DNA from: an uncultured bacterium
GTDB taxonomy: Bacteria; Verrucomicrobiota; Verrucomicrobiia; Verrucomicrobiales; V1-33
Assembly: GCA_903954065.1 (NCBI GenBank)
Contig: CAJBME010000310.1
Location: 8,854-72,853, forward strand
Direction of reading: 5' to 3'
DNA length: 64,000 nt
How positions within the stretch are numbered: the stretch's first letter is position 1; each line of letters starts with the position of its first letter. Made by a program: the position numbers and the translations under genes. This document shows positions 11,880-60,020 of this stretch, piece after piece. The notes beneath the pieces are model-generated. The model was not told where the DNA came from, did no database searches, and saw only the letters and a program-made list of their open reading frames with translations.

Positions 11880-11890
11880 GCCGCCTTCGC

Positions 11891-36935: not shown

Positions 36936-36966
36936 GGAAATCAATAATTTCGCTGACGGGAGCCCC

Positions 36967-41600: not shown

Positions 41601-43610
41601 TTCCCTCCACGTTCCGTCCGGCCCTCCATTGCTGGCGGCAGCGGTGGCGCGGTAGGAGTACGTTTTCCACGCTGTGCGATGGCTTTCGTCGCTGGCGCCC
41701 CATGAACTACCAGCATTGTTGTCGGCGTCGAGGTCGCGAAGCTCGATGCTGGCCCCGCCTCCGTCGCCAAAGCGCGGCCACTGGCCCCCGTCGTAATAGC
41801 GGACGACGTCTACCGAATTCCGTTGGTCGTCGCGTAGGACGATTTCTTCAGTGGAGCGGGACAGGGAGCCGTCCCAGATACCGAGGACACGCGCAGCCGG
41901 ATACGCTGCCGAAAAAAGCAGAGGATCGCGCACCACGCAGGCGCGTTCGCCGGGGGCGAGCACGGTATCTGGTCCGAAGGTGAAAGTGACGCCCTCCGTC
42001 AGCGCCCAACCGGTAAGACTGACGGGAGTGGCGCTGCGGTTAGTCAGCTCCAGCCACTGGTTATCGGAGTTGCGCCGCGGCAGAGTGGCCGTCGGAAGCA
42101 GCGACGGCGGGTTATACTGAATTTCACTGATGACGATACTATCGTTGAAAATAAAATCATTCGCTGTGCCTGGTGTGGGCTTGGAAGGATAAGCCCATTC
42201 GCTGCCGCGGCTGGCGGCGTGACCGCGCAGGCGTCCGGTCTGCTCGCGAGCATCCATGAGGGCGGTTTTACCGGCGGTGTAGAGAAAGACTTTTTCGCCA
42301 TCGACAGGACGGAAGCCAAGTACGGATTCGGTCAACACGAGAAGCCCTCCAGCCGCTAAGCTGCCGGAAGGAATCACATACTCGCGCGTCCGATCGCTCT
42401 CGACGCTGACGACGGCGCCGGTCAGGTCCACGGTATGACTCCCGGCATTGGCAATCTCCACCCACCACGAGTTCTCGGTGCTGGCGGGTATTTCGTTGAA
42501 ACGAAGCTCCGGCACCGCACCCGATACGAGGCCGCGAACATCCATGTCGAGTTGCGCGCCCCAGACGACGTCGCTGTTACCGACAGCAGACTGGTGGACT
42601 TCCACGGAAAGACGATTGCTTCCCGCGACAAGCGCCGTGGCCGGCAACGGCACAGAAGCCGAGAGGGCCGTTCCCGCTTCCACGTTCGCAGTGGCCGGAG
42701 TCGCTGAGGTGATAAGGCCGGCAGGCATGTTAATGCGGGTAGCCTCCACACCATTGAGATAAATGACCGCGCCGTCATCGAGCGCGGCCCTGATCTTGAG
42801 TAGGGAAAGATTTGCCAGCTGCTCCGCGGTGACGTTGAACTCGGTCTCAAAGTAATAGGTCATCACATAAACAGGATTTGTTCCTGGAAATGCGAGTGCA
42901 GTACCGATCGGAACGGTGGCCGAGACTTCGTAAGCCAGCGCACCGGGACCAACCGCCCATCGGTCAGCGCCCGAGCCACCGACAGCATGGGCGGCAGTGG
43001 CCCACGCGGCGTCGAATGCAGGTCCACTCTCATTATACCGCCACGCCTGATCAAGACCAAAGACAGGCACGGTGGTCACGGGTGGCGGGGATCCTGTGTC
43101 AGGAAAATTCGGAGCACCTGGCGTGCCGCCCTGCTGGGCGCTCACCGTCCAGTGGGCAGATGGGCCACTGGACTTATAGGGTTGTGCCTTGGCGAGGGTG
43201 AACCCCGATCCATCGGTGCCCGCAGGCCACGGAGCCTCATCGATGAAGACGATTTCATCCATCATGCGGTCGCTGTGGTTGATCAACCGGAGCCGTTGAC
43301 CGCCATTCTTGATGGACCCGGGAAAAGGTCCGTATTGCCCCGCGGCTGGCGTTTTTGCGACCACGACATGGGCGCCGGGATTGATGAGGGTGTTTGCTGG
43401 AAAAGTGTAGTCGATACCGTCGATCCGCCAGCCGGAGATGTCGGTCTTAATGCCCATTTGGTTGAAGAGTTCCACGTATTCCCCGGCTTCCGAAGGGCCG
43501 CCCGGATTATACTGGATCTCATTGAAGACGACCACGGAGTCCGGCGAAGCCAGCCCCGGAATGGCCACCAAGGCCGACAGGAGTGCAGCAAGAAGCAGGC
43601 GCGGAATCAT
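38643..43610 (-). CDS. giant secreted protein with several lamin-tail (LTD) domains, a CotH kinase-like domain and shared C-terminal tail
   Basis: Signal peptide MIPRLLLAALLSALVAIPGLASP. LTD signatures (VVFNEIQYNP...GEYVELFN; ISEIQYNP..QWLELTN; VVAELMYHP..FEWIELQN). CotH-like core at about 39980-40860 (NFRVITTNADRTWMH..., HLYEYELVYYP, FLPHDMDNGY). DTDSDGYSNLIEYALGPNP, then a tail ending VFFRAKVRLR. Confidence 0.9.
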   Translation of the reverse strand: MIPRLLLAALLSALVAIPGLASPDSVVVFNEIQYNPGGPSEAGEYVELFNQMGIKTDISGWRIDGIDYTFPANTLINPGAHVVVAKTPAAGQYGPFPGSIKNGGQRLRLINHSDRMMDEIVFIDEAPWPAGTDGSGFTLAKAQPYKSSGPSAHWTVSAQQGGTPGAPNFPDTGSPPPVTTVPVFGLDQAWRYNESGPAFDAAWATAAHAVGGSGADRWAVGPGALAYEVSATVPIGTALAFPGTNPVYVMTYYFETEFNVTAEQLANLSLLKIRAALDDGAVIYLNGVEATRINMPAGLITSATPATANVEAGTALSASVPLPATALVAGSNRLSVEVHQSAVGNSDVVWGAQLDMDVRGLVSGAVPELRFNEIPASTENSWWVEIANAGSHTVDLTGAVVSVESDRTREYVIPSGSLAAGGLLVLTESVLGFRPVDGEKVFLYTAGKTALMDAREQTGRLRGHAASRGSEWAYPSKPTPGTANDFIFNDSIVISEIQYNPPSLLPTATLPRRNSDNQWLELTNRSATPVSLTGWALTEGVTFTFGPDTVLAPGERACVVRDPLLFSAAYPAARVLGIWDGSLSRSTEEIVLRDDQRNSVDVVRYYDGGQWPRFGDGGGASIELRDLDADNNAGSSWGASDESHRTAWKTYSYRATAAASNGGPDGTWREFNMGLLSAGEIWIDDLQVIEQPSAAATPKIADSAFDNAAAWRRTGNHRSSEVIPEPGNPGNNILRLVAGGPTEHIHNHIATTLSSTVVNGREYEIRFRARWVTGAHQLHTRLYFNRAARVNVLDRVVNPGTPGAVNSRAAANAGPTFSHLKHSPAVPSAGVETTISCTAGDSDTVSEMTLYYSVNGAAFASAAMASSGDGKFIGSIPGQPAGAVVQFYVRGTDGSGVHAFHPATGPDSRALYKVNDNQAATNGWHNFRVITTNADRTWMHTNYNTMSNDLIGCTVIDRENDIYYGVGVHLKSSERGRNQLTRVGYNLTFPSDGLFRGVHDSLNLDRSEGQAPGQRELLFDVMISNAGGPISRYNDFIKLLAPNNSLTGGAIMQMARYEDLFLEEQFEDGEEGHLYEYELVYYPTSADSKQNKLYYPSPDDVIGLPFSGQGNDPERYRWHFMNKNHREADNFIPLMNYAKMFSKSGAAFEADVKNLIDLDGWFRGLSCAVLSGATDNFAGDGSQHNAWIYARPDGRVIFLPHDMDNGYTSGLTIFNNPHCAALTVNPARRRQYLGHLHDIISRTYNNKYMSTWTSHFAALDPSQPWTSHLNYMTSRSNSVLSQIRSQIPSVNFAITTTSPLTVAASTATIAGNGWVNVRDIRIAGSPEPLAVTWTGRSAWQAIVPAAPGSHELALEAVDIAGVVIGTTNITINNTTTVQPGSASNLVVAELMYHPADPTPEEIAAGFVDSDQFEWIELQNISAAVVDMTGVRFTEGLAYDFTAGTMMQPGQRLVVARERAAFLMRHPGAVGVLAPGAFTNATALNNGGEAVQLTGADGLPVKSFAYDDSFPWPAAADGHGPSLVLIAPSTNPDHTVATHWRSSAQSGGNPGVADSIPFTGDPGGDTDSDGYSNLIEYALGPNPIITSAAGPEGMTFTVPVMTGADDVLLTGEVSTALTGWAPADLIGTTTSNLIFRVPTSASGGNQVFFRAKVRLR

Positions 43611-43718: not shown

Positions 43719-45689
43719 CTAGGGCTTGGTTTCCCGCACGCGGTAGAATGCTTGCGGGAGATTGGCAGCGATAGTGTCCACGTACATCGTCTGATTTCCG
43801 CCGGAAACAAGCGCATCGGTCAGTTCCACCCATCCGCCCGGCTGGCCGGCTGAGGTCAATGTGGTGGAGAAATCGACGGCGTATGTGCGACCGGGACGTG
43901 AGAGGATCGTGAGCGTCGCGGACGTCCCTCCAGATGCCCGCGTGATACTGGCAATTTCCAACGGTGTCTGCGCGGCTGGGTTCATGATCGAGGCGATGAT
44001 TCCGTCACCCAGAGGAACGCGGTAGAGGCGAACGTCATCGATGAGCCCCTCAAAGCCCTCGGTGTCGTTGTGGCGAGTGCCAATATTCATGAAGTCGCTT
44101 CCGGGATTCGCGGGAGGCAGGCCGGGGCCGGAAAAGACTTTGAACCCGTTGACGAAGAGAGACATATCCTGAGGTCCTGAGCCCGCGTTGCGCCAAGCGA
44201 CATGCACCCACTCGTTGAGGAAAAGCGCGACCTCCGTGTTGTGCCATCCCGTTTGCTGGTAGTAGCTGAGGGTCAGATCAGGCGCCCCACCGACAGCGGC
44301 CCGGTTTCCAATCGCAGTTTCAAATCTGTCCCCAGCGCGACTGGTCAACCGCTCAAGGCCAGCGCCCTCCTGCAATGTCGTCGGTTTAACCCAATAGCTG
44401 AGCGTGAATGAGTTTGACGAGAGCGAGTCGCTTCCCGGCACATTGACCCCCATATTGTTCGCGGTGAGCGCCAAGGCTTGGCCACCGCCCGGGCTGTCCT
44501 CGTTCGCAAAAGCGGCATCGCCCAGAATTGATCCGTGGTTGGCCGATGGGGAACTATCTTGGGCATCTCCCTCCAATTTAAGGTGTAGCGTCAAGTAAAG
44601 CGACGGTGACGGCGCGCTGGTGGCGCTGACCGGATTGGTGCCAGCTGCGATTTCCAGTCCGTCGGTGAAAAAGTCCCCATCGGTGTCGGCGAGGAGCGGG
44701 TTGGTGGCGCGGACGTTCATCTCGTCTCCGTCCGAAAGCCCGTCCCCATCGGTGTCCGCCACGGTCGGATTTGTGCCCAAAGTCATTTCCGGACCATCCT
44801 TGAGCCCGTCGTCGTCCGTGTCAGCATCATTAGGTTTCGTCCCCCGAGCCAGCTCTTGGGCATTGGTGAAGCCATCAGTATCCAGATCGCCGGCAGCGCC
44901 ATTCGCTCCGGTATTGTCGTTGGGATTCAAACCGTTTGGCGTTTCCCAAGCGGTCGGTAAACCATCTCCATCGCTGTCATCGAAGAAATTCGCGACACCC
45001 ACGGCGGCGATGATGCTGATATCAACGGGGGTCAGGGTCCCGTCCCAAAGAAAGACGTCATCCATGAGACCATCGAACCCTTCCTTGTTGTTGAAAGCGG
45101 TGCCCAAATGCATGAAACCACTAGGGTCCGGGACCCGCGCCCCCGTGAAGGCCAATACCCCGTCAAGGTACAATTCCATGGCGCTCGCTGTATTGCGCCA
45201 CGCCACATGGCTCCAACCTGAGGATGGCACGCTCACGGCCGTAACCACCCAGCCAGTCGCGGGGCTGTAGTAGGAAAGCCCACCGGTAGTCCCGACTGCC
45301 GTCTCGAAGCTATAACCATCCCGCGAGCTCAGTCGCTCAAATGGGCCACTTTGAGGCATATCGAGAAGATTTATAAAATAGCCGAGGGTAAACTCGCCTG
45401 AGTCGAGCGCAGCGTCGGCCTCGAGGCGCACGCCTTCCGAGTCCTCATCGAACCGCAGTGACTGGCCACCCAGTCCGGCCGGAACGTCTCCCTCGTAGGT
45501 AAGCGTGCCTAATTCGCTCCCATGGAGTCCGTTGTCGGAATTATCAATCAAGTTGCCGCTCAATGGCCACCAGCCGAGCAGTCCTGCGGCTGCACCCCAT
45601 GGGGCCAAGAACGCGCTGACAGCGATGGCCGCTAACCACCGGGTTTGGGAACCCGTATTCGAGGTAGAGAGAGATTTTAATTTCTTCAT
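43719..45689 (-). CDS. secreted 2x LamG + TSP3-repeat protein with shared C-terminal tail (paralog of 16489..20529)
   Basis: Signal region WLAAIAVSAFLAPWGAAAG. LamG ends GFDGLMDDVFLWDGTL and GFEGLIDDVRLYRVPL. DxDxDG repeats (DSDGDGLPTAWE, DTDDDGLKDG, DTDGDGLSDG). Tail GRTYAVDFSTTLTSAGQPGGW...AFYRVRETKP. Confidence 0.9.
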   Translation of the reverse strand: MKKLKSLSTSNTGSQTRWLAAIAVSAFLAPWGAAAGLLGWWPLSGNLIDNSDNGLHGSELGTLTYEGDVPAGLGGQSLRFDEDSEGVRLEADAALDSGEFTLGYFINLLDMPQSGPFERLSSRDGYSFETAVGTTGGLSYYSPATGWVVTAVSVPSSGWSHVAWRNTASAMELYLDGVLAFTGARVPDPSGFMHLGTAFNNKEGFDGLMDDVFLWDGTLTPVDISIIAAVGVANFFDDSDGDGLPTAWETPNGLNPNDNTGANGAAGDLDTDGFTNAQELARGTKPNDADTDDDGLKDGPEMTLGTNPTVADTDGDGLSDGDEMNVRATNPLLADTDGDFFTDGLEIAAGTNPVSATSAPSPSLYLTLHLKLEGDAQDSSPSANHGSILGDAAFANEDSPGGGQALALTANNMGVNVPGSDSLSSNSFTLSYWVKPTTLQEGAGLERLTSRAGDRFETAIGNRAAVGGAPDLTLSYYQQTGWHNTEVALFLNEWVHVAWRNAGSGPQDMSLFVNGFKVFSGPGLPPANPGSDFMNIGTRHNDTEGFEGLIDDVRLYRVPLGDGIIASIMNPAAQTPLEIASITRASGGTSATLTILSRPGRTYAVDFSTTLTSAGQPGGWVELTDALVSGGNQTMYVDTIAANLPQAFYRVRETKP

Positions 45690-45846
45690 GGGCTGGGTTA
45701 TTTTATCGCTTACTTCAATTGTGCTTCACGAGCCCGATGAATTCCAAGAGCAAAATTCGACGTTTATGAAGACTTTATGCCAGCGATTTTCTGACGACGT
45801 GCTGGCGCACAGCGGTGAGTCGTGCGTCGCGGACCTGGGGGCGCGA

Positions 45847-47388
45847 TCAGCGGCGATGCTGAGCCTCCGTCGGAACGAATGTGGTGGTACCTGAGTAGAT
45901 GGACCGCAGGTTCCAGCCTTTGATTTCTTTCACGCGGACCGAACCCCCTTCGCTCCACAGGCTGACTCCGAGGTTCTCCGGGGCGTAACGATGGGGAGCC
46001 AGCGCGGCCAAGCGGTCATTGGCGAAGACTTCGATGATGCTTTTGTCGAGGAAGATGCGCAAATGGATATCTTCATCCGTCAGGACGGTGAACGGGATTT
46101 TTGTCTCACCCATGGTCAGCATTTTTGCCTCCGGTTCATAGCTGATGGGAAAGCCGTTTTTACCCTTTTGATCGCAATAGACATGCACTCCGAACTTCCG
46201 GGCCGCGCCTGACTGGAAGACGATGCTCAGCTCGAGTGTATCGCCAGTGATACTTTCGAGTGGGTGAGCCGTATCCGCTGCGATCGTCACTTCGCCTGCC
46301 GAGCGCTCCTCATGGCGGAGTTGCTCCAATTCCCGGAGGGGTTTAATGCGCAGCACGCCATCTTCTGGCAGGCTCAGCTCGCGCGGCAGGCATTGAATAC
46401 TGCTTTGAACCGGCACTTCTTTCAGCCGGTGTTTCATCCGCGACCACGCCCACATCACGCGCCGACCATCAGGTGTCAGCAGGCTCTCGGGAGCGTAAAC
46501 ATCGGCATCTTCATCTCCCCCCTGAAAGGCGCACATCCAATTCATTCGGCCATGCGATTCAGGGAGGAATTTTTCGTCCTGAAACCGGCCGAGGTAGTAG
46601 CGACTCCCGATCCAGTGACTCAGGCAAAGTAGCATCCACTTGTCTCCGATCCGGAACATATTCGGGCAGGAGATATCCTCATCACGCGGCACATCGAGGG
46701 TAGGCATGTTGTCGTGGAGCAGGTGGCCGAGGTAGTGCCAGCTTTTTAGATCCGAGGATTTCATCCAGTGAGGATCCTTGCCGCCAGAAATCGCATAATA
46801 TGTTTCGCCATCAAGCCAGCAGTCAGGATCCCAATGGCGCATCTCCGGAAGCGCTCCCGAGGCTGTGCTTGGGTTCACCGGCACCGGCTTCGACCAGCGC
46901 TCAAGTAGGTCATCCTCGGCGAACGCGATCTGATTTCGTCCAGAACCTTCTCCATGGTAGATGATCGCCGGTTTACCTTCCTTGGTGAAAAATCCGGTTC
47001 CGCTAAACAGACCGTGCCCCATCGCGGCCGGGGTGAGCGTGGTCGGATGCCATTTCCATTGGACCATGTCCGTGCTCGATACATGCGCCCACGAGACACC
47101 TGCTTGGGCCTCGTAGATGTAAAAAAGATGGTATCGCCCTTTCCAGTAGAACGCTGCATTCGGATCGCCCGGCCCGGTTGTTCCCGGGTGGGCTAGATGA
47201 TAAGTCAACCACGTCGATGGCGGATCGACCGGGAAAACGGGTGTCTCCGTTGGCGACGGAGCCGAGGAGGCGGGCGTCTCGACGGCGAAGGCAACCGCGG
47301 TGGCGAGGAGAATCCAGAATGTCGACAGCCTTGCCACGCACGCGCGACTCGACAATCGCTTTGCTTCGTCGATCATAAAATTAAACAT
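45847..47388 (-). CDS. glycoside hydrolase family 32-like protein (beta-fructosidase superfamily), secreted
   Basis: ATG at 47388 (MFNFMIDEAK...STFWILLATAVAFAVETPA signal). GDPNAAFYWKGRYHLFY (WMNDPNG-type block), HVSSTDMVQW, HWDPDCW (RDP-type block). GH32 C-terminal sandwich LRIFLDKSIIEVFANDR. Confidence 0.75.
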   Translation of the reverse strand: MFNFMIDEAKRLSSRACVARLSTFWILLATAVAFAVETPASSAPSPTETPVFPVDPPSTWLTYHLAHPGTTGPGDPNAAFYWKGRYHLFYIYEAQAGVSWAHVSSTDMVQWKWHPTTLTPAAMGHGLFSGTGFFTKEGKPAIIYHGEGSGRNQIAFAEDDLLERWSKPVPVNPSTASGALPEMRHWDPDCWLDGETYYAISGGKDPHWMKSSDLKSWHYLGHLLHDNMPTLDVPRDEDISCPNMFRIGDKWMLLCLSHWIGSRYYLGRFQDEKFLPESHGRMNWMCAFQGGDEDADVYAPESLLTPDGRRVMWAWSRMKHRLKEVPVQSSIQCLPRELSLPEDGVLRIKPLRELEQLRHEERSAGEVTIAADTAHPLESITGDTLELSIVFQSGAARKFGVHVYCDQKGKNGFPISYEPEAKMLTMGETKIPFTVLTDEDIHLRIFLDKSIIEVFANDRLAALAPHRYAPENLGVSLWSEGGSVRVKEIKGWNLRSIYSGTTTFVPTEAQHRR

Positions 47389-47450
47389 GTGAGATAGAGG
47401 GAAATTTCTGAAATCGATGACCGTCCGTCGAGCTTTCGCCCTAGGGCAGG

Positions 47451-49877
47451 TCAATGCTTTTTCACTGGGCCGAGGTGTCGGTGCAGGAATTTAAATGTCT
47501 CTCCCAGATTGATTTCATGGCCGCCGACGAACCATTCGATGGCACAATTTTCCGGCAGTTTGAGTTGAGCGTTATAAAGGTGTTGGATCTTGGCGAACTC
47601 GAACCCGACCTGCTCGTCGGAACCGACCGGATCGAAGTGCCCGCGCTCGACCATGAACGGACGCGGAGCGATCAAGGCCGCCATTTCGGCATAGCCATAG
47701 GTACGGCCCAGACCGAACTCAAAGATGTAAGGCTCCGGCTGAAACACGTAGCTATAGCCACTGTTGTTCGTAGTTGTCTTCCAGATCCACTCGTTGAAAT
47801 CACCGGACACCACAGTTAGAGCGTAACCATTCACCAGCAATGGCATACGCATGGCGGTTTTACCGCCCCAAGACAGGCCATAGAGCCCGATGCGATCCCC
47901 CGCGACGAACGGTTGGGTTTGCAGCCAGTTGACGATCTGCTGATGCATCGCCGCGATATAGGAATACTGCGTCAGCCCCACACTGTTGCACTTGCGCACG
48001 AGGCTGTCGGTCGGCGGAAACATCACCGAAGGCGCGAAGGTAACAAACCCCTCCTCCGCAAGCCGCGCGGCGAACGCATGATACGCCCCGGCCTCATCCT
48101 TTACCAACTGGTCAGGATGACCGCCGCCCCCATGCTGACACACCACCACCGGACGACGTTCACCCGGCATTAATCCTTTGGGGACGACTAAATAACCAAA
48201 CGCGTTCGCACCCGGGAAAACGTCCAGTTGGACTTCATAACAGCTCCACTTCTCCTCGTCGTAACGCCGGCGCGATTTCGCATTGAACGGCAACACAGGT
48301 GTCTCGAGGCGCCCGAGCACTTCGCGGCGCAGATGGTCGATGTAAAACGTCTTCGTCGCTTCGTGTTTTTCAAGGGATGAAGAATCGAGCTTTTTCATGA
48401 ACTGCTGCCGTTCGCTGGAGCTTTTTCCGAGTAGCCATTGGGTGTGCCGGTCGATTTCATGCATCTGCCTCAGCTGACGCACACGCGGATCAAACTGAGA
48501 CGGCAACGTCTCTGGAGCCCCCTCGTCCGGTGAGAGAGTGGTTCCAGGTTTCAGGGCGGCGAGGAAATGACCCAACATTGAAGCCGAGCCGAATGCCCCC
48601 TGCCCGTCACCTTCAGCAATTAACTCGATCGGCTCGGGCGGATCAAATCCGTTCGCAAGTTGCAGCGCCCGCGCGACTTCCTCCTTCACGCGGACGACGT
48701 CGGGCGAGCGGACTATTCCCTGACTGCCCCCGGGCGCCGTCACCGCGACCTCCGGGCCGCGGCACGCTTCGATAATCAACGCTCGAGGTAAAATCAGGGT
48801 CGCGATCTCGGCGTCACCGAACTGGGTAAGCAAGGAGAACACGCTGCGGTCAAACGGTTCGTTCCAAAGATTCTGACGCGAATCAAAATACCCGGAGACA
48901 CCAACCGCATCAATGCGGGTGTCAATCGCTGCCGCATAAAACCCGAGGAGCGCACCCTCGCCGTAACCGATCACTCCGATGGCATCGTTCTCCCGCGCGA
49001 GCCAGTCCACCGCTGCGAGCACCTTCTGCACTTCATAGCCGATCAGGTGCCGACCGAGCTGGAAGGCCGGGCGAAACAACAATTCACGGCTGCTCATAGG
49101 CTGGCGCGCATACGAGGTGAATCCATCCTCGCCACGCACTGCCACCGTACGGTCAATCAACACCGGCACGAGGACACGGCAGCCGTTCTCCGCGAGCCGC
49201 CGGGCAAATTGTGATTCTATGGCTACCCCTGGCGCCAACCCGCAGATCTGCTCGGGCGTCTGCGCGCAGTCCGGCACCGCGACCACCGCCGCCACCGACT
49301 GGCGTCCACGGGGTTCGAGCAACAAGCCTTCAGCCTGCACATCGCCGAACGCCGGCCAGCTTACACGGTGGACGTCATAACTTTTCCCGCGCCCGACAAG
49401 GGCCGGCTGATCCACAGTCGCGAGCAGCGCAGGCGCATCAAAGGGTACGCGGACATCGCTGACACCGATGATGTGAGCGAAGCGCGTCCGATTTGGCTCG
49501 ATGGAACGATTGTAGTTTTCCGCCGATGTAAAATCCCGCTGCCAATGCTGCGGACGCGTCGCCGTCGCCCGGTCGATTTCAGCATTAATGACCCCATCCC
49601 AATTTCCCACGCCACCTTGCCCTTCAGACAACGGTGCCGTGCCGGGTAAAACCGCAGGTGGGCCCGCGGCCGCGCATTCAGGTATCAAAACGCTAGCAAT
49701 GCTGGCCAGCAACGACGCGACGAGGACGGCCGCGCGACGTACGATGGCGACGCCGCCATTAGGCCAGAGGGCGAAAACGCGTGGGAATCCCATAAGACGA
49801 ATAGATGAGGTGCTTGGGATCGAACCGATATGGATGCCGTGGCGGACTAGCGGGAACTCTGGCGCCGACTTTTTCAT
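47451..49877 (-). CDS. secreted tandem alpha/beta-hydrolase-fold protein (esterase/peptidase-like)
   Basis: C-terminal half has VVVCQHGGGG and the nucleophile elbow GLYGLSWGG. The N-terminal half has the equivalent position as IGVIGYGEGA, with no Ser. Hydrophobic N-terminal segment AAVLVASLLASIASVLIPECAAA. Confidence 0.75.
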   Translation of the reverse strand: MKKSAPEFPLVRHGIHIGSIPSTSSIRLMGFPRVFALWPNGGVAIVRRAAVLVASLLASIASVLIPECAAAGPPAVLPGTAPLSEGQGGVGNWDGVINAEIDRATATRPQHWQRDFTSAENYNRSIEPNRTRFAHIIGVSDVRVPFDAPALLATVDQPALVGRGKSYDVHRVSWPAFGDVQAEGLLLEPRGRQSVAAVVAVPDCAQTPEQICGLAPGVAIESQFARRLAENGCRVLVPVLIDRTVAVRGEDGFTSYARQPMSSRELLFRPAFQLGRHLIGYEVQKVLAAVDWLARENDAIGVIGYGEGALLGFYAAAIDTRIDAVGVSGYFDSRQNLWNEPFDRSVFSLLTQFGDAEIATLILPRALIIEACRGPEVAVTAPGGSQGIVRSPDVVRVKEEVARALQLANGFDPPEPIELIAEGDGQGAFGSASMLGHFLAALKPGTTLSPDEGAPETLPSQFDPRVRQLRQMHEIDRHTQWLLGKSSSERQQFMKKLDSSSLEKHEATKTFYIDHLRREVLGRLETPVLPFNAKSRRRYDEEKWSCYEVQLDVFPGANAFGYLVVPKGLMPGERRPVVVCQHGGGGHPDQLVKDEAGAYHAFAARLAEEGFVTFAPSVMFPPTDSLVRKCNSVGLTQYSYIAAMHQQIVNWLQTQPFVAGDRIGLYGLSWGGKTAMRMPLLVNGYALTVVSGDFNEWIWKTTTNNSGYSYVFQPEPYIFEFGLGRTYGYAEMAALIAPRPFMVERGHFDPVGSDEQVGFEFAKIQHLYNAQLKLPENCAIEWFVGGHEINLGETFKFLHRHLGPVKKH

Positions 49878-49913
49878 GGTTTATGAGCTCGAGTTCAAAA
49901 CCGATCACTCCGA

Positions 49914-51383
49914 TCAGGCGAGCACCGCCTTCACCACCTGCCCGTGGACATCGGTCAATCGAAAATCCCGGCCGCCAAAACGATAGGTGAGTTTCTCATG
50001 ATCTATCCCGATGAGGTGCTGCACGGTCGCCCACAAATCGTAAACGGTACAAACATCCTGCACTGCATAGTAGCCGAGATCGTCGGTGGCCCCATGAACC
50101 GTACCGCCTTTGATGCCGCCGCCGGCTAGCCAGACACTGAATCCGAATGGGTTATGATCCCGACCGTCCCCGGATTGCGCGAAGGGAGTCCGGCCAAATT
50201 CTCCAGCCCAAACGATGAGGGTTTCGTCAAATAATCCCCGTGCCTTCAAGTCTTTAATAAGACCCGCGATCGGCTGATCTACTTGGAAGGCCATCTCGGA
50301 ATGGCCAGCCTTCAATACGCCGTGTTGATCCCATGGATTTCCGATTTGGCCGAGATCGGAAGGGCGCGGCAGGCAGGTGAGTTCGACGAAGCGCACGCCG
50401 CGCTCCACGAGACGTCGTGCGATCAGGCATTGCCGTGCGTATTCCGCCTTCTCACGTACCGGCGAGTTCAATCCGTATAGCTCCTTTGTGGAGTCGCTCT
50501 CGCCTCGCAGATCCATCAGATCCGGAACGGCCGATTGCATGCGGTAGGCAATCTCGTAATTGTGAATGGCGGATTCAACCTGTTCGTCTCCTTGGAGCCG
50601 GGCGAGATGACGGCGATCAAGGCGTTCGATGAAGCTCAAGCGCTTGCGCTGCAGGCCGTCGCTTTCGCGGGGCGTGATGTTCGCGAGAGATTCCTGCTGA
50701 GTGGGATCGAGGAACGATGCCTGATGAACGGCGGGAAGAAAACCATTGCCAAAAATGTTCACGCCGCCCAGCGGTATACCGCCACTGGCCAACACCACGA
50801 AGCCGGGCACGTTCTGATTCTCACTGCCGAGACCGTAGCTTGTCCACGCGCCCACACTGGGATGTCCGGCGAGCGAAAAACCGGTGTGAAGGAAATAGTT
50901 TCCCTGAGCGTGTTCGTTGGCTGTGCTGGTCATCGATCGAATGACAGCAAGGTCATCGGCGCACGAGCCAATGTGTGGGAACAGTTCGCTCACAGGCAAG
51001 CCCGACTGTCCGTGATTTCTAAACTCCCATGGACTGGCCATGATGTTGCCGTTCTGGTTAAACATCGTGGGCCGAACCGGTACTGGCATCGGCTTCCCAT
51101 GATCACGTTTCAAGCGCGGCTTGGGATCGAAAGTGTCCACATGTGACACGCCGCCGGACATAAAACAAAAAATGACACTTTTCACTTTTGGGCGGAAATG
51201 TGGCGGGCGCGGCGCGAAGGGACTGGGCTTAACCGGATCAGCCGCAGCGGCCAGCGCCTTACCTTCGGCGGCGAGGCCGGACAATGCCACCAGACCGAAG
51301 CCGGTTGAACATCGCGCGAGCATATCACGGCGCGAAATCATTCCCGCCTGAGGCGCGTGCAATCGTGAACGGTTAATCGACAT
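49914..51383 (-). CDS. DUF1501 domain protein, Tat signal (paralog of 32953..34458)
   Basis: [75 protein letters not shown]. The start at 51383 overlaps the upstream gene by 11 nt; alternative ATG at 51341. Confidence 0.9.
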
Positions 51384-54300
51384 AAATGAACTCCTTTAGA
51401 CAAAACAGAGATTGCGCGAAGTCCTGCCAGACGCGTTCGCTCGTCTCAACTTCCCCTGGCGGGATCGAGTGTTCATCCGCCAATTCCTCAAAAAAATCTC
51501 CAGCCGAAGCCAGATCCTCCGCGGTCGGCATGCGCCCCAACGCCCTGACGAACATGTCTTTAATCCGTTCGTCCCGCGAACGCCCGCCAGCGGCCAGTAC
51601 CTTTGCCCATTTCGCGGATTGATCTATGACAAACGGATCGTTGAGCATTGCTAGGGACTGCGCCGGAACGTTGGTGGCGTCGCGCTTGCCACGCGTGGTT
51701 GCAGGCTTGGGCGCGTCAAAAGCCTCGAGAAACGGGTTGTGCGCGTTGCGCCGAATACGTTGGTAAACACTGCGGCGTCGATCACCATCCAGCGGACCCT
51801 TCGCCCCACCGCCTTCGGTCTTGGCCACATAATACACGTTCACCCCCGGGCCGTACATTTGAAGATCCATCTGACCGGACACAGAAAGTACGGCGTCACG
51901 AATGGACTCCGCTTCTAAGCGACGCACACGTGCATGCGAAAGCCAAGTGTTACTGGGGTCGAGTCGTTGCGCATCAGCAGAAGTCAACGCCGTCTGCCGG
52001 AAGGCTTGCGACATCATGAGAAATCGGATCGTTTCCTTGACCGACCAGCCGTTCTCAACAAAACGCGCTGCGAGGAAATCGAGCAGCTCCGGATGCGTCG
52101 GTATTTCGCCGAGCCGGCCAAAATTATCTACGGTACCGACCAGACCACGGCCGAAAAGATGATACCAAATCCGGTTCACCATGACCCGAGATGTCAGCGG
52201 ATTGGTGGGACTCGCCACCTTGTCCGCCAGTTCTAACCGCCCGCTCAGCGACGTTGGGAACGGACGGTCATCGAACATCTCCAAATACCGTCGCGGGACG
52301 GTTTCACCCGGCTGGGTGATCTGGCCGCGCACGAACAATGGCTGGTCAAACGCATCGGCTTCATGGACACCCGGTGCACGACGAGGGACCGGAATCTCCC
52401 CCTCCAGACGCCGGTAGGCGGCCATAGCCCCCTGCAGTTGAGGCAGTCGCGACAGGGAAACCGGCAATAAATCGCGGCGAATGAAAAAATCGAGAAATGC
52501 CAATTCGGCGTCGCTCAGTTTTCCCTCGCGCCAATGTTCGACAGCGTCCGACAAGCGGCGGCGGTAGAGTTCGGCCAGTTCCGTCACTGACCCGGGCGCC
52601 TCCCCTGACAGCAAAAAAGCGGCCGGCACGAGCTGTTCTTTGGGCGGCTGGGAACCATTGTGAAAAACCACCTCGGCAGCTCCGAAGCTAGCGCGACCTC
52701 CTGCGGCGGAACCGGAGATGGGTGAATCATCGTCCGTGACAAATTCAATATAAGCGTGAGAGCCTTTGCGGTAGGCCGTGTCGAGCCGGATCCACTTCAT
52801 GTCGTCACCATTTAATCTCTCCGCCGGATAGAGGCCGCCGCCACCGATGGCGTAGTTCTCGACGACGAGTCGCACCATGCTGTGCTCGCCGAGCGCACGC
52901 ACGCTCATACTGTCCGATTCCACCTTGAAGCGAGGCGAGGTAAAGACGCCGCTTTGTTTCCGAGTCAGTGCGTGGTTGAAAACGCCCGCTGGATAAAGCC
53001 CGCGCAAGACTCGGTCGCCATCGAACTCGATGGAAAACTCGCCCGCCGGAACCGGCACACCCGGGGTAGCGCCGCCCCCTTGACCCGGCGTCGCACCGGC
53101 CATAAACCAGCGGCCAGCCTCTTCGCCCCGCAGGTCCCAGCCTGGGGTGAATTGGGTCCGGTTGAACTCGCGGCGGTCAGCTAGCTCGTTCCTCCAAAAC
53201 GTTGCGAGTTCATCCCAGCCCGCTTGAAAATCTTGATCAGTCAGACGGGACAACTTGACCCACGGATGCAGCGCGCTGGCCTTGTTGTCCGCGGCTTCCG
53301 TCATGGCCGCTTTCCATGCGTCCGTCATGTGGGTGGAGTCGAGTGGCCGAACCTGAACCGACCGCAGCTGATCCAGCTCATGATGAAGGTGCGCCCGTTT
53401 CACGAGCTCATCTGGCGTTAAGGATTGGGTCAAGCTTTCTGCATCCACGCTGGCCGCCCCGGCCTGGAACGAGACAGCTATTTGCTCAGCCGTGAGGGCC
53501 TGGTCATATAGTCGGGCCTCCTCAATCTCGCCGGCTAAGACGCTCACTTCTGCGGCCAAATGGCGTTTACCAAACACCACCCGGGCGCTACCCGCAGCAA
53601 ACGGTTGCAGCGTGCCGTGCTGATAGCTTTTGCCATACAGAGCGCCATTGCGATAGAGTGTAATGGAATTGTCCGTGCCATAAACCACTGCGAGATGGAT
53701 GAGCTCACCCGGGCCAGCGGTCTCGGGCGAGGCGTGGGCGTCTTGGGTGCGTCGAAAAAAATCGCTCCCGGCAATCCAATGACCCGGTTCCTTTTCGCCA
53801 AAGACGATCGCGTCGAAGTTCTCGCTATCCGGCGTCTGCACGGTCAACGCCGCTCCCCCCCGTTGATCGAGCCCGGCCAGAGTCACCCAGACTTCCAATG
53901 TTTTTTCGCGAAGGCTGGTCGGAAGCGGTTCGGTGACGACCCATTGGCTCGCGTCCTCCAAGATAAGGCGGCCCGCCCGGACCACAGCGCCGCCTTCGGC
54001 TCGGCCGTGCATAGACCCGATGGCATCGCGCAAATCTTCGTCGAAACCCCATCGAGCCAACGGTAGAGGCAGCTGATTCGAAAAGTCCGCTCCGCTCTGC
54101 CGGACAAGCTCAGCGCGAGCCCGCAATTCAACCTCCGCGATTTCTCGGGAAAGCCGACGAATGCCCGCTTCCGTCCGTTCTTTTTCCGCACTGCGGGCCG
54201 CCTGCTCGAGGAGCCATGTCCCAAGACCCGCCGCGGCTTCGGTCCACGCAGCCTCTAAACCACCGCGAATTTCATCCTTCAACACCGCGAGTTCAGCCCG

Positions 54301-55599
54301 GTTCGTCTGCTGTAATACAGGATCATCTACCACCACCTGGCTGGGGCGACTGCTGGCGAAGACACCATAGAGCGCATAAAAGTCCTTTTGGCTAATCGGG
54401 TCAAATTTATGATCGTGACAGCGGGCACAGGAAACGGTGAGCCCTAGAAATGTTTTTGAGAATACATCAATCTGGTTATCAACGACTTTCACCTGATCAT
54501 CTAATGCATCCACCGGTACATACCCTAATTCGACCATGCGCAAATACGCTGGGCCAAGCATGGATTCGTTCAATCCCTCAGCGCGATTCAGCCGCGGATT
54601 CGGCAGCAGATCCCCAGCGATGTGTTCGCGGACGAACTGGTCGTAGGGCACGTCGTCATTGAAGGCGCGGATGAGGTAATCCCGGTAACGCCAGGCCATC
54701 GGCAATTCCGGATCGCCTTGGCTACCGTGAGACTCACAGTAACGAACGAGATCCATCCAATGCCTCGCCCAGTGCTCGCCAAACCGTGGCGAGGCCAGCA
54801 GGCGGTCGACTTGCCTGCTGTAAGCATCCGACGAATGGTCGCGACAGGAGTCCTCGATCTCTTCGGCGGTAGGCGGAAGCCCGGTCAATGCGAACGTGGC
54901 GCGCCGCAGCAACGACTCGCCACCGGCCGCGGGAGAGGGCCGCAGCCCGCGTTCCTCCATTTTCGCTTGAAGAAAACGATCGACCGGATGCTCCGACCAC
55001 GCGGTGTCCCTCACCTTGGGAATAGCCGGCTTGCGCACTGGCTGGAAACTCCACCATTCTGCGCGCGCTTTGAGCGTAGCAGCCCAACTGGCATTGTCCG
55101 TCGTCACCGTCTCACCCACCGTCGGCGGCTGGTCGCGCGGATCAAATGCGCCCTGATTCACCCAGGCCACAAAATCCTCGATGACAGAATCCGCAAGCGC
55201 AGGTCGATCCTTCGGCATTTTCGAATCCGGGGCCACGTGGCGGATGCTTTGGATGAGCAGGCTTTTGTCTGCATCACCCGGAATGACCGCCGGGCCGGTG
55301 TCTCCGCCTTCGAGGAGTCCGTCTCGAAAATCCACGCGCAGTCCGCCCTTTTGCTTATTCGCCCCGTGACACTCATAGCACTCGTTGACCAGCATCGGCC
55401 GGATGCGTTGCTCGAAAAAATCAATCTGTTCTGGAGTGGCCGAAAGCGCGGTCTGAACGAAAACAGTAAGAATAGTGAGAGCAATCCAAGTGGCTCCAGT
55501 CGGTGCACGGTTCGACCACCTGGTCCGATCGCGCTGATGGCCGAGGTCGGCCTCGGTCGGTGCGACCGTGACGCGCTGAGATTTTGAAATTGCCCTCAT
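51373..55599 (-). CDS. PSCyt1 (CxxCH) - DUF1549 - LamG - DUF1553 multidomain protein
   Basis: Heme-c-type motif [44 protein letters not shown]. LamG-like insert ([18 protein letters not shown]). DUF1553 region ([24 protein letters not shown]). Start at ATG 55599 (MRAISKS...) or 55665. Confidence 0.9.
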
Positions 55600-55785
55600 G
55601 TATCGAGTGGGGCAGCCCGGTAAGCGGGATCGTCGAGAACCCAAGGGATGCCTTATGACATTCATAGACGGAAGGCAGGCCGTTGCCTATCATCCAATGC
55701 CCTAAAGAGACGTGCGATACATGACGATGACCCGTCCGGGGCCGCAGCATCATGAGGGTAAACGAGACAGCGATTTTTCTTTCTT

Positions 55786-55814
55786 TTTAGACGCCTCAGT
55801 ATTAGTTGTGTCAA
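55786..55814 (-). promoter_or_regulatory. candidate sigma70-like promoter for the PSCyt operon
   Basis: Minus strand: TTGACA (55814-55809), 17 nt spacer, TCTAAA (55791-55786), in the 345-bp divergent intergenic region. Confidence 0.4.
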
Positions 55815-55944: not shown

Positions 55945-58900
55945 ATGCCTTCTACCTCCATTTGCCGCCGCGCCGCGCTTCAGGCGCCGTTGATGGCTAG
56001 TCTGGCCGCCTTGTTTGCTCTCGCTGCCTTTGCCTTCATCTCCCTCATCGCGCCAACGGCCGCCGCCTCTTCTTACAGCAGCTCGCTGGTTCATGGCATG
56101 ACGGCGACTAGCAGACGAGGCAGTGAGCCCCGCCAGATGGTGCGCCGAGGGCAGGAAATCCTCTTCTGGGCATCGGATCCTGCCCATGGCAATGCCCTAC
56201 GTCGCCTCAATCTGACTACCGGCCAGGTCAACATGGTTTGGGATTTCAACCTACCCTTCAGTCAAATCAGCAGCCAAGGCACGTTCGCTCACCTCCCGGT
56301 TGACCAAGGATGGGTGATTTTATTACGCGACGCCGTCTGGCGCACCGACGGCACGCCGGCAGGGACCAGCCGCCTACTCCAGTGGAAAACAGAAAGTGGC
56401 GGAGCTGACCGCAGCCAGATCGTCCACGACGGCATCGCTTATTTCAGCGCCGAAGACCCCGCGCACGGCCACGAACTCTGGCGCAGCGACGGCACGCCCG
56501 CAGGCACCTGGATGGTCAAAGACCTGCGCGTCGGCCCGGATAGCAGCCAGCCGGAACACTTCGCGGTCGTGGGCCGCCGGATCTTCTTCGCCGCCGGCGA
56601 CTCCGAACACGGCGTGGAACTGTGGGTCACAGACGGCACGGCCGACGGCACCCGCCTCGCCGCCGACCTCGTGCCCGGATTTTCCAGCGGCCTACCCCGC
56701 GACCTCTGCGGTCTGGGCGAAACCGTTTTCTTCGAAGCCTCAGCCGGCACTCTGGGACGCGTGCTCTGGCGCAGCGACGGCACACCCGAAGGCACCCGCG
56801 TGGTCAACGACTCCCCGACGGGCGATCCCCCGAAAACCCCCTCCACTCTGATCGCTGTCGACAACTGGGTCTATTTCACCGCTCACACCAATGCCAACGG
56901 TCGCGAATTGTGGAAAACCGACGGTACCGCCGCCGGCACTCGCCTCGTCCGCGACCTGTGGCCGGGACGCGACGGCAGTGAGCCTAGCCACCTTCAGGCC
57001 GTCAACGGCCGCGTCCTCTTTACGGCGTACTTGACCGGGGACACCAATCAACCTCGTCTCTTCACCAGCAATGGCACCTCCGCCGGCACGGTGGCCATCC
57101 AATCATCGTCCCTGCGACCGAAGTGGATCGGGCCGGGCGACGCTAATGGCGGACCGACCATGGCCGATGGGGCCGCTTGGTTTATCGCGAGCAGCGGTTC
57201 CAGCCTCCACTCCGGACTCTGGCGCACCGACGGCACCGTCGCTGGCACCCGTCAAGTGTATGCCCCTGCGCCCGCCACCTGGACAGCCTCCGTCGCGCCG
57301 ATCCTCGCTGTCGACGGCCATCTCATCCTCACCGGCTCGACGCTTGGCGATCCACCCACCAGCGGCGAAATCTGGAAATGGAACATCGAAGGCCGCACGC
57401 TTCAGCCCGTGGCTGATCTCTGTCCTGAAGGATGGGACGCGCCACCCAGCCACCCGCTTTCCACCCCACTTGGCTTCTTTTTCCGCGGTTTTTCGCCCGC
57501 CGCAGGATTCGAGCTCTGGCGCACCTTGGGCACGCCGGCCACCTCCACCCTCCTCAAAGACCTCCAGCCGGGCTCCGTCAGCGGCTTCGGTGGCTCCGAC
57601 CAAAACATCCTGAGCGTAGGCCCTGCGGGCCACGTTTATTTCCAAGGGGCGACTCCAGCCGCCGGCGCAGAACTCTGGCGCAGCGACGGCACCGCCTCCG
57701 GCACCACCCTCGTCCGCGACCTAGCCCCGGGATCAAAAGGAAGTTTTCCCTCCGGACTAACCGCCCTCGGAGACGGCCTCGTCTTCGCCGCCTCCGGAAA
57801 ATTATGGACCAGCAATGGCACCGGCGACGGTACAACGGCAATCCTGCCCATGGCTCCCAATACGGAGGAAAGCCGACCGGAATTTCTCACCCGCTTCGGT
57901 GACCGCGTCTTCTTCAGCGCCAGCGACGCGACTCACGGCACCGAAATCTGGTCGTCCGACGGCACCGCTGCGGGTACCCGCCTACTCCGCGACCTTTACA
58001 CCGGAACCGGCACCGTCTGGCCCCGCCTCTTCGGCACCGCGGGTCCCCTGCTGTTCTTCGAACAACACGGAACCGCGCGCGATTACGGACTCTACGCGAC
58101 CGACGGAACCAGCGACGGAACCCGCAGGCTCTCGGATGCCCGGCCCTTCAGCCCAGGCGATGCCGCCAGCATCGGCCCTGACTTCTACTTCGTGCACGCC
58201 CCGACTCCCGATTCCCAGTCGCTCTGGCGCTCCGACGGCACAGCGAACGGCACGCGTCAAATCACGACCCTCGCCGCCACCCGCTTACCGGAACCCGGAT
58301 GGCGCTTGACCGCCGCCGGTCCCTTCGTCTTTTTTCACCTCCGGGACATGGTGCTCGGCAACCAGCTCTGGCGCAGCGACGGCACCGGCGCCGGCACCGT
58401 GGCCGTCGTTCCCGAAACCCCGGCCTGGGACCCGATCCGCAACATCGAATTGCTCGGCAGCATCGGATCCGAAGTCTATTTCGCCGCCACCACCTACCGT
58501 CACGGCCGTGAATTATGGGTCAGCGACGGCACCGCGACCGGCACCCAGCTGGCCCTCGACCTCGGACCGGGCGAAACCTCCGGGCTGCCGCTCTGGATTG
58601 GGTGCCACGGCGACCGCCTCTTCGGCCTCTTCGCCGCCGACCCGCAGTCGGGGTCACCCAGCATACGCTCGGTGGTCCCACCAAACGCGCGCCCGGTTTT
58701 CCTCGGACTCGAAATCGACACCTGGCCGGACGTGCCGACCCAGTTCTCCGCCGAACGTCTGCGCTCATTGATCGAAGCGCCTCCCGACACCCCGCTGGAA
58801 CTAGTGCCCGCCAATCCGATCGGCACGGCCGGAGGAGGATCGTTGACGCTAGCCCTCAGCACGGCCGGTGGATCGTGGACTCTAATCGACGACCTGTTCA

Positions 58901-59252: not shown

Positions 59253-60020
59253 TTACAGTGGCTTTTCCATGGCCATGAGTTCTTGTTTGAGCACTTTGCC
59301 GACACGATGTTTGGCGAGGTAGACTTGGGTCATGCTGACGCCCAGTTCGCTCATGACTTTTCCGACTCCCCAGTCTTTGATGACGTAGCAGTCGTATATT
59401 TGAAACTGTTTGGGGGAGACCTGATTTTTTGCCCGGGCGAGGGCGCGATCGAGCAGATTTTTCGCCCATTCGGCATCCCACATTTTCTCGAGGGCCCCGG
59501 GTTTGGTATCGGCGAAGCGGTCGAAGGTAGCGGTATCGCGGTCTTCGTGTCCTGCTCCGTGATGAAGGTGGGAATCTTTGCCCCGCCGCCGGAATTGGTC
59601 GTTGATGCGCCACCGGGTCAGGTTCATCAACCATGACTTGAAGCTACCCTGAGACGAATCGTATTGGTTTTTTTGCGACTGTTTGGCGATGGCGATGACC
59701 ACTTCCTGCACCGTGTCCATCGCTTCGTCCGGCCGCAGGCCGTTTTTCAGACCCACGCTGTAAATCAACCGCCAATACGTCTGGTAAAATTCGTCCCACG
59801 ACCGCTGGTCTTCCCAGTTGCCCAGCCGGTCAATCAGGCTCTTGCGCGTTTGTTGGTAGGCTGACAATAACCCCGCTTCGTCCGGCCCAGCGGCCAGTAC
59901 TTCAGACCGGAGGGCGTCAGCATCATCACCAGCAGCACCAGCAGCAGCAGCAGCAGCAGCATCAAACATGGGCCCACCATGCGCCCGACGGAGGGATTTG
60001 TCCAAGAGAGCAGCAAACAT
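59253..60020 (-). CDS. ECF-type (sigma-70 family) RNA polymerase sigma factor
   Basis: Region 2-like WDEFYQTYWRLIYSVGLKNGLRPDEAMDTVQEVVIAI. SFKSWLMNLTRWRINDQFRRR. Region 4 HTH SPKQFQIYDCYVIKDWGVGKVMSELGVSMTQVYLAKHRV. Alternative start at 59969. Confidence 0.85.
   Translation of the reverse strand: MFAALLDKSLRRAHGGPMFDAAAAAAAGAAGDDADALRSEVLAAGPDEAGLLSAYQQTRKSLIDRLGNWEDQRSWDEFYQTYWRLIYSVGLKNGLRPDEAMDTVQEVVIAIAKQSQKNQYDSSQGSFKSWLMNLTRWRINDQFRRRGKDSHLHHGAGHEDRDTATFDRFADTKPGALEKMWDAEWAKNLLDRALARAKNQVSPKQFQIYDCYVIKDWGVGKVMSELGVSMTQVYLAKHRVGKVLKQELMAMEKPL
59939..59959. repeat. trinucleotide microsatellite (CAG)7 / (GCT)7 inside the sigma factor gene
   Basis: Seven perfect CAG units on the + strand, flanked by imperfect units. 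On the coding strand they encode the poly-Ala run in MFDAAAAAAAGAAGDD. Confidence 0.9.

Follow-up and report, generated by a model that had tools for sequence, protein, structure and literature searches.

A PSCyt-PSD1/DUF1501 gene pair and its hydrolase neighbours in a possible glycan-utilisation island of an uncultured Verrucomicrobiales bacterium

Gene content of the locus

We studied a stretch of 64,000 nucleotides (nt) from an uncultured bacterium of the order Verrucomicrobiales (lineage V1-33; contig CAJBME010000310.1 of assembly GCA_903954065.1, forward-strand positions 8,854 to 72,853; hereafter the window, numbered from its first letter), in which a gene for a PSCyt-PSD1 protein and a gene for a DUF1501 protein precede two genes for exported hydrolases. 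These four genes, here called g1 to g4, are co-directional open reading frames (ORFs) on the minus strand: g1 (51373-55599) encodes a PSCyt1-PSCyt2-LamG-PSD1 protein of 1408 amino acids (aa), g2 (49914-51383) a DUF1501 protein of 489 aa with a twin-arginine translocation (Tat) signal, g3 (47451-49877) an exported tandem alpha/beta-hydrolase of 808 aa as called, and g4 (45847-47388) an exported protein of 513 aa that is related to glycoside hydrolase (GH) family 32. The positions and the junctions of -11 (g1/g2), +36 (g2/g3) and +62 nt (g3/g4), which had been given in an earlier model-made reading of the same DNA (the first-pass annotation), were borne out by the ORF coordinates and by direct reading of the sequence. 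The sequence leaves the start codons of g1, g3 and g4 undecided; for g1 and g4 the ATG of that annotation was kept, the longest ORFs extending to 55665 (1430 aa) and 47454, respectively, and since the g3 orthologues measure only some 754-780 aa, compared to 808 aa as called, the gap between g2 and g3 could be about 120 nt. All four products carry sequence-predicted export signals, and a terminator scan gave no terminator-like site in any of the three junctions.

Upstream of g1, in a divergent intergenic region of 279 nt, lies the candidate promoter TTGACA-N17-TCTAAA (55814-55786, minus strand) that had been pointed out before; the sequence is indeed present, with a weak -10 element. A relaxed pattern (TTGACA-N17-TNTAA), which was picked after the site had been seen, occurs once in the window against 0.03 occurrences expected. 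A stricter sigma-70 scan did not list the site, because the -10 element lacks A2 and T6. The candidate is not conserved as a feature: the g1 orthologues in two related loci (L089 and L090) start 36-46 nt after a co-directional gene. No RNA family of Rfam was found anywhere in the window, and thus no riboswitch or leader was detected upstream of g1.

The minus-strand run passes position 45847 and continues with five further genes down to 32953, so that g1-g4 are the upstream part of a nine-gene co-directional run (32953-55665). At 157 nt downstream of g4 lies g5 (43719-45689, 656 aa), in whose product Pfam finds two LamG domains along with TSP3 repeats, followed by g6 (38643-43610, 1655 aa; four LTD domains and a CotH domain) and g7 (36967-38469; the ORF extends to 38583, with 38469 the likely ATG), which encodes a Tat-signal DMFA2_C protein (Pfam, E = 3.7e-76). 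The run ends with a second PSCyt-PSD1/DUF1501 pair: g8 (34455-36944, 829 aa) contains PSCyt2 (6.1e-71) and PSD1 (2.1e-78) without PSCyt1 or LamG and has a single CxxCH motif (CAKCH, aa 257), and g9 (32953-34458, 501 aa; DUF1501, E = 3.5e-136), also with a Tat signal, overlaps g8 by 4 nt. Just beyond g9, in inverted orientation, we found a gene for an exported protein of 737 aa with a signal peptide (28731-30944, plus strand), here called U740. The U740 protein had no Pfam or PDB match. At E <= 0.001 its family comprises about 1285 clusters (50% identity), and in part of it there are fusions to GH2, GH20, LamG or LTD domains. DMFA2_C is a domain like the beta subunit of N,N-dimethylformamidase, and g7 stands directly upstream of g8-g9 in the window as well as in the related loci L092 and L178.

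The pair and the two hydrolases

Genes with PSCyt1, PSCyt2 and PSD1 domains and an optional Laminin_G_3 insert, together with a gene for a Tat-signal DUF1501 protein, were described by Kamneva et al. 2012 (PMC3542564) and by He et al. 2017 (PMC5615132), and both papers state that the function of the pair is unknown. Our literature search found no functional study of the DUF1501/PSCyt pair after 2017. The first-pass annotation had described the pair as abundant in bacteria of the Planctomycetes-Verrucomicrobia-Chlamydiae (PVC) group and as not known to have an experimentally defined function. Genomes of many Planctomycetota and Verrucomicrobiota carry it in tens of copies, and up to 71 DUF1501 genes per metagenome-assembled genome (MAG) were reported by He et al. 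2017. The latter authors also noted sulfatases and carbohydrate-binding-module proteins among the neighbours of PSCyt genes and suggested that these genes 'somewhat mirror' glycoside hydrolases, and hence the idea of a role in glycan degradation predates the present analysis.

A Pfam search confirmed each of the domain calls made earlier for g1-g4, namely a protein of about 1408 aa with a heme-c-type CxxCH motif, a LamG insert and DUF1553 (PSD1) for g1, a Tat-signal DUF1501 protein for g2, a double alpha/beta-hydrolase for g3 and a GH32-like protein for g4. In g1 we found PSCyt1 (6.5e-18), PSCyt2 (PF07583, 3.3e-76), Laminin_G_3 (1.1e-14) and PSD1 (PF07587, 5.7e-84), behind an N-terminal hydrophobic signal or anchor of the Sec type. 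Both quoted CxxCH motifs are present (CYECH at aa 74 and CARCH at aa 391), and CARCHxHKFD is invariant in 36 g1 orthologues. The orthogroup is tight and its architecture is kept, at 51% identity or more in Verrucomicrobiota and Planctomycetota. In g2 the DUF1501 match (PF07394) has an E-value of 2.1e-142, and the twin arginine is invariant. The genes g1 and g2 form a unit of their own, which is translationally coupled and of the published PSCyt2-PSD1 + DUF1501 type. PSCyt2 and PSD1 lie in one protein in both g1 and g8, the DUF1501 gene is adjacent and co-oriented in both cases (g2 with an overlap of 11 nt, g9 with one of 4 nt), and at the level of motifs the twin arginine (19 of 19 DUF1501 sequences) and CxxCH (g1 and g8) are there. 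With the published 'group II' PSCyt pairs they share the domain architecture (with the Laminin_G_3 insert as an option), the Tat DUF1501 gene directly downstream, the high copy number and the occurrence of sulfatases and carbohydrate-binding-module proteins in the neighbourhood, and the pair itself shows no difference from these.

Names in NCBIfam were not informative for g1, g2 or g3, and a comparison of g1 and g2 with the PDB by sequence gave nothing significant. We obtained a structure model for aa 210-1408 of g1 (predicted local distance difference test score, pLDDT, of 76), of which the best PDB match was the arabinan-binding domain 4 of the GH43 arabinanase AbnA (5hon, E = 6e-8, template modelling score 0.74). 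The PDB matches listed for this model cover about 200-235 aligned residues of LamG/jelly-roll type only; because they span the LamG-type part alone, they are uninformative on PSCyt2 and PSD1. The model has low confidence in the CxxCH region of PSCyt2. In it the LamG domain is preceded by a helix of about 75 residues, and there is a second, unannotated beta-sandwich at approximately aa 818-980.

The LamG insert of g1 (aa 541-740) shares 40-50% identity, along some 145-158 aa, with the N-terminal LamG domain of 60 of the 120 GH32-like proteins that we collected as homologues of g4, which is the same level of identity as to the LamG domains of distant g1 orthologues. LamG modules akin to that of g1 are also found ahead of GH43-like and GH32b genes in metagenome loci (GH32b being a paralogue of g4). 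The g1 insert did not match the LamG domains of g5 or of the ORF at 31137-32825 in the same window. The g1 LamG belongs to the same subfamily as the LamG fused to GH32-like enzymes, a hint at a role with glycans that is independent of gene order.

In an alignment of 19 DUF1501 sequences the twin arginine (RR), S80, WDxH, GEFGR and GRDH were invariant. A profile made from it was compared with the PDB, and 23 of its 24 matches were to sulfatases, LtaS or ENPP proteins (e.g. ENPP4). These weak matches (E = 0.011-2) cover a conserved strand and the metal-ligand region at positions of about 350-400. They agree with a placement among alkaline-phosphatase-like enzymes and are no proof of it. Like the type I sulfatases and the alkaline-phosphatase superfamily, to which the matches in the metal-ligand region point, the DUF1501 proteins are exported, but they differ from type I sulfatases in that they have no conserved CxPxR formylglycine motif, are exported via Tat and are always paired with a PSCyt2-PSD1 gene. 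A different role was put forward by Kamneva et al. 2012 (PMC3542564): the pair would be an electron-transport or membrane-associated module without a carbohydrate role, in which the cytochrome exchanges electrons with a Tat-exported cofactor enzyme. The invariant CxxCH motifs and the Tat signals on g2 and g9 would suit this published proposal. However, no redox-cofactor domain is seen in DUF1501, whose resemblance (albeit by weak matches) is to alkaline-phosphatase superfamily hydrolases, g1 carries a LamG domain of carbohydrate-binding type, and the genes in the neighbourhood are carbohydrate-active rather than respiratory. We consider such a role very improbable for the pairs in the window.

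Pfam placed g3 in the DLH and Abhydrolase families with its C-terminal half only. The AlphaFold2 model (mean pLDDT 82) consists of two alpha/beta domains, and its Foldseek matches were all carbohydrate esterases (CE), for instance 3nuz/3g8y, acetyl xylan esterases of family CE7, glucuronoyl esterases of family CE15 and the methylesterase BT1017 (E = 1e-12 to 1e-8), at 12-18% identity to these solved enzymes. In the C-terminal domain S669, within YGLS(W/Y)GGK, and H787 are invariant in an alignment of 29 sequences, and this domain thus has both the nucleophile-elbow Ser and the catalytic His. The N-terminal domain does not have this triad: an invariant Glu (Glu307) takes the nucleophile-elbow position, between the strand 300-305 and the helix 307-318. 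With the carbohydrate esterases (Abhydrolase_7 proteins 3NUZ/3G8Y, CE7 and CE15) g3 therefore shares the fold and, in the C-terminal domain, a GxSxG-type Ser and the His; it differs from them by the tandem of domains within about 765 aa and by the N-terminal Glu at the nucleophile position. Members of the g3 family, of about 765 aa and at least 45% identical, were found across Verrucomicrobiota, Planctomycetota and Acidobacteriota, and two of them (P0178 and P0217) are fused to sulfatase domains. The model of g3 resembles carbohydrate esterases, which hints at a role with glycans.

For g4 both the GH32 N-terminal domain (2.7e-34, 119.6 bits) and the C-terminal domain (7.6e-21, 75.2 bits) were above the Pfam cut-offs of 22.1 and 21.9 bits, and a comparison with PDB entry 7vco gave E = 2.9e-31 for g4 and E = 5e-49 for the family profile. 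The residues of the active site were counted over 121 sequences (g4 and its homologues P0001-P0120, 54-100% identity). As in the GH32 beta-fructofuranosidases, e.g. the Thermotoga maritima invertase (1UYP) and sucrose-6-phosphate hydrolase (7VCO), there are a five-bladed propeller and a beta-sandwich, a nucleophile Asp (D75 of the NDPNG motif, 118 of 121 sequences) and a transition-state Asp in the RDP motif (D187, 121 of 121). Different from these enzymes, RDP reads WDPDCW (Trp for Arg in 120 of 121) and the EC(P) motif lacks its acid/base Glu: the residue aligned to it in 7vco and 1uyp is a Ser (Ser240) in all 121 sequences. Cys241 and Asn243 are invariant as well, a Glu-Asp two to three residues upstream (Glu237 and Asp238) is essentially so, and about half of the family has an N-terminal LamG domain. 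The GH32b paralogue likewise reads DCSCNN. Public annotations of the family are sucrose-6-phosphate hydrolase or beta-fructofuranosidase, and routine annotation probably mislabels its members; in a literature search on GH32 in PVC bacteria we found nothing on the Ser variant. The family is clearly under selection and is therefore probably active, and its chemistry and substrate cannot be read off canonical GH32 enzymes.

Conservation of the gene order in relatives

The orthogroups of g1, g3 and g4 are each tight and extend from the Verrucomicrobiota into the Planctomycetota at approximately 50-58% identity. We compared the surroundings of g1 in five loci with an orthologue (97, 79, 72, 57 and 56% identity; L088, L089, L090, L175 and L176, respectively). 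A DUF1501 gene was found directly downstream in all five, with the 11-nt overlap recurring in the first four. The pair is the conserved unit, because the DUF1501 gene follows g1 in each of these loci while the other neighbours differ. In the closest relative (L088) g1-g2-g3 are contiguous and are directly followed by g5, with g4 missing, and near the four other g1-g2 orthologues there was neither an esterase gene nor a GH32-like gene. The L089 orthologue follows another pair and faces genes for GH172, GFO_IDH_MocA and 3-keto-disaccharide hydrolase proteins, that of L090 has as neighbours a DAO/GCV_T protein, a CBM9 protein and an FGE-sulfatase protein, and the neighbours in L175 and L176 are again unrelated. 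The genes beside the pair in L089 (15758-20172 of that locus) are one for GH172, one for a GFO_IDH_MocA oxidoreductase and two of the 3-keto-disaccharide-hydrolase family. GH172 enzymes act on furanosides, and the LamG-bearing pair may thus act on furanosidic sugars.

A comparison by blastn showed that the segment 45934-47449, i.e. all of g4 but the last 28 codons, together with the greater part of the spacer between g3 and g4, is absent from two close relatives, the Verrucomicrobiales MAG LJ.21 (L013, 94% nucleotide identity) and L088 (97%). In both a 3' remnant of g4 is retained directly after the stop codon of g3, and g5 is present after g3. An insertion of g4 in the strain of the window was considered and rejected, as the remnant points to a deletion in the relatives. 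L088 has a second small deletion, at about 45715-45890.

The first-pass annotation had read the four genes as apparently co-transcribed. We did not find g1-g2-g3-g4 as linked orthologues in relatives: g4 has been deleted in L013 and L088, and the hydrolases are not near the more distant g1-g2 orthologues. It is accordingly improbable that g1-g2-g3-g4 form one dedicated operon in which g1-g2 would be specific partners of the esterase and the GH32-like enzyme for a single substrate. The short junctions (-11, +36 and +62 nt), which are free of terminator-like sites, the predicted export of all four products, the contiguity of g1-g2-g3 in the 97% relative and the LamG of g1, whose type is also found in fusion with GH32-like enzymes, would be in line with such an operon; on the other side stand the g1-g2 orthologues at 79, 72, 57 and 56% identity without both hydrolases nearby, the loss of g4 and the finding that in relatives the orthologues of g3 and g4 go with other pairs (g8-g9 or a third paralogue).

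In closer Verrucomicrobial relatives (62-92% identity) orthologues of g3 and/or g4 lie beside a PSCyt-PSD1/DUF1501 pair or less than 10 kb from one, in several gene orders. In L011/L005-7 and in L012 an orthologue of g3 (72-74%) is followed by those of g8 (60-68%) and g9 (78-80%) and then by a U740 orthologue of 745 aa. L178-180 contains, in this order, a GH32-like gene (75%), GH32b, orthologues of g7 (66-70%), g8 (62%) and g9 (80%), a U740 orthologue of 758 aa and a gene for an MFS transporter, with the g3 orthologue (78%) located 2.6 kb upstream on the opposite strand. L092 carries a further pair, genes for an EthD protein, a PfkB kinase, a GDSL esterase and a GH43-like propeller, then GH32b, a GH32-like gene (84%) and orthologues of g7 (92%), g8 (83%) and g9 (91%). 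In L177 a g3 orthologue (85%) is followed by a paralogous pair of a third type, a g4 orthologue (81%) and GH32b, in L003/L009 a g3 orthologue (82%) is followed by a GH43-like propeller gene, and in L100 and L104 a U740 orthologue adjoins a GH32-like gene. The gene for a 510-aa protein after the g3 orthologue of L003 was considered as a g4 orthologue and rejected, since it encodes a distinct GH43/GH32-like propeller.

Seen gene by gene, the orthologues of g8 (60-83%) adjoin those of g3 or g7 in L011, L012, L092 and L178, those of g9 (78-91%) are present in L005/L011, L012, L092 and L178, and those of g7 (L092 and L178) lie between the GH32-like genes and the g8-g9 orthologues. Orthologues of U740 (745/758 aa, 73-82%) were found in L005/L011, L012, L100, L104 and L178 and adjoin orthologues of g9 or of the GH32-like genes. 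Thus a clade-specific set consisting of g3, g4, GH32b, the GH43-like gene, g7, g8, g9 and U740 stays together through rearrangements. Through these rearrangements it is g8-g9, along with g7 and U740, that remains linked to the esterase and GH32-like genes, and not g1-g2. The focus of the first-pass annotation on g1-g2 as the hydrolase-linked pair therefore concerned the wrong pair and the wrong boundaries, g8-g9 and g7 lying outside the coordinates it had used. The g3 orthologues abut three paralogous pairs, i.e. g2 in the window, g8 in L011/L012 and the third type in L177, and a remnant of old gene order would hardly account for this, although these lineages share ancestry. Only in this species do g1-g2 stand immediately upstream of g3, an arrangement that may reflect the recruitment of a second pair into the island.

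We observed no enrichment of DUF1501 genes close to either hydrolase family as compared with the sequence 5-10 kb away. Around 80 genes of the g3 family, taken from genome loci of g3 homologues, the density of DUF1501 genes per 100 kb was 1.39 (0-1 kb), 0.87 (1-5 kb) and 0.94 (5-10 kb), and around 80 GH32-like genes, taken from metagenome loci of g4 homologues, it was 0, 0.87 and 0.45, respectively; the underlying counts are small (10 DUF1501 genes in about 1.0 Mb of g3 flanks and 4 in about 0.7 Mb of GH32-like flanks). The neighbours of two distant g3 homologues (P0165 and P0231) were unrelated. A general linkage of either hydrolase family to the pair was rejected on these flat densities. Conservation of the neighbourhood therefore holds in the closer Verrucomicrobial relatives, with other pairs, and holds neither for g1-g2 below 97% identity nor for the families at large.

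The flat density would also be expected if the adjacency had no functional meaning, the pairs being so numerous that hydrolase genes often fall beside one and the recurrences being what is left of a shared gene order. The abundance of DUF1501 genes in single MAGs, the presence of two pairs within the 64-kb window and the dispensability of g4 in close relatives all speak for this explanation. It does not account well for the orthologous g8-g9, which stays with the orthologues of g3, g4, g7 and U740 down to 60-80% identity despite changes of order and orientation, for the three different pairs that g3 orthologues abut, or for the kinship of the g1 and GH32-like LamG domains, which does not depend on gene order. 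We regard an adjacency without meaning as unlikely, though as a possibility to be taken seriously.

A putative island for a furanose-rich glycan

The reading that we favour, with about as much to be said for it as against it, is that the nine-gene run and the inverted U740 gene constitute a glycan-utilisation island of this uncultured Verrucomicrobiales bacterium, by which a furanose-rich, substituted glycan would be handled in the periplasm. Oligosaccharides of such a glycan (fructan-like or arabinan-like) would enter the periplasm, where g3 would take off ester groups and g4 would cut furanosyl linkages. The PSCyt-PSD1/DUF1501 pairs would bind the glycan, and they would take away or alter another of its substituents, for instance a sulfate or phosphate ester. 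In this scheme g1 and g2 would act as a periplasmic complex, with g2, like other DUF1501 proteins, as a putative metal-dependent hydrolase of the alkaline-phosphatase/sulfatase superfamily and g1 as its heme-c-bearing partner. The LamG insert of g1 might bind the glycan and provide the binding specificity, and the cytochrome-like partner might serve as a scaffold or as a redox component.

By analogy the clade-specific island resembles a polysaccharide utilisation locus (PUL). Like the SusC/SusD PULs of Bacteroidota it would bring together co-localised genes for exported glycan-binding and glycan-degrading proteins, and the set is kept while the order changes. It differs from them in having a PSCyt-PSD1/DUF1501 pair instead of SusC/SusD: among the annotated proteins between 28.7 and 59 kb there was, according to Pfam, no SusC/SusD-like family and no TonB-dependent receptor family. 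The first-pass annotation had proposed a substrate-specific periplasmic module with a logic like that of a PUL. The export signals, the esterase-like g3, the GH32-like g4 and the LamG kinship are in line with that part of the proposal, and the designation of g1-g2 as the linked pair did not hold.

Several of our results weigh against the island. Co-transcription of g1-g4 would follow from their spacing only, the link of DUF1501 to the alkaline-phosphatase superfamily depends on weak E-values (0.01-2), and the activity and the substrate of g4 are uncertain as it does not have the canonical acid/base residue. The dispensability of g4 in L013 and L088, the flat DUF1501 density around both hydrolase families and the high number of DUF1501 genes per MAG, with two pairs in this window, count on the same side, and with such numbers a certain amount of chance adjacency is to be expected. 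Moreover, the closer relatives share descent, so that the recurrences are not fully independent. Finally, no transporter or regulator was assigned within the island of the window.

A broader proposal, which we think rather doubtful, is that PSCyt2-PSD1/DUF1501 pairs are modular substrate-handling units of a polysaccharide utilisation system of a PVC type, and that the conserved set (the tandem esterase, the GH32-like protein without the acid/base Glu, DMFA2_C, g8-g9 and U740) represents an undescribed type of locus for a furanosidic glycan, in which the acid/base function of the GH32-like enzyme would be relocated or substrate-assisted. If true, it would for the first time connect an uncharacterised gene pair that is among the most abundant in PVC bacteria with a defined substrate context.

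The module as such has been described already, and what is new compared to the published PSCyt pairs is modest but useful: the conserved neighbourhood of g8-g9 (esterase, GH32-like protein, DMFA2_C and U740) in one Verrucomicrobial clade, the kinship of the g1 LamG with that of GH32-like enzymes, the altered GH32-like family and the U740 family. The present window alone does not solve the function of the pair, but it narrows the question, as the stable neighbours of g8-g9 and the LamG common to g1 and the GH32-like enzymes point to testable glycan substrates and to proteins that are worth expressing.

Other features were seen on both sides of the run. Divergent from g1 lies a gene for a 1097-aa protein (55945-59238, plus strand) with 12 ELWxxDGT repeats (TIGR04534, E = 3e-162) and no Pfam match. 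Beyond it, about 3.6 kb upstream of g1, a sigma-70 region-2 protein is encoded on the minus strand (59253-60020), which by its size is like the extracytoplasmic function (ECF) sigma factors and could be a regulator of the region. At the other end of the window, at 5750-14014 on the minus strand, we found a gene for a protein of 2034 aa that combines Calx-beta, Big_9, Cadherin-like and metallophosphatase domains; after it comes a gene for a sulfatase of 707 aa.

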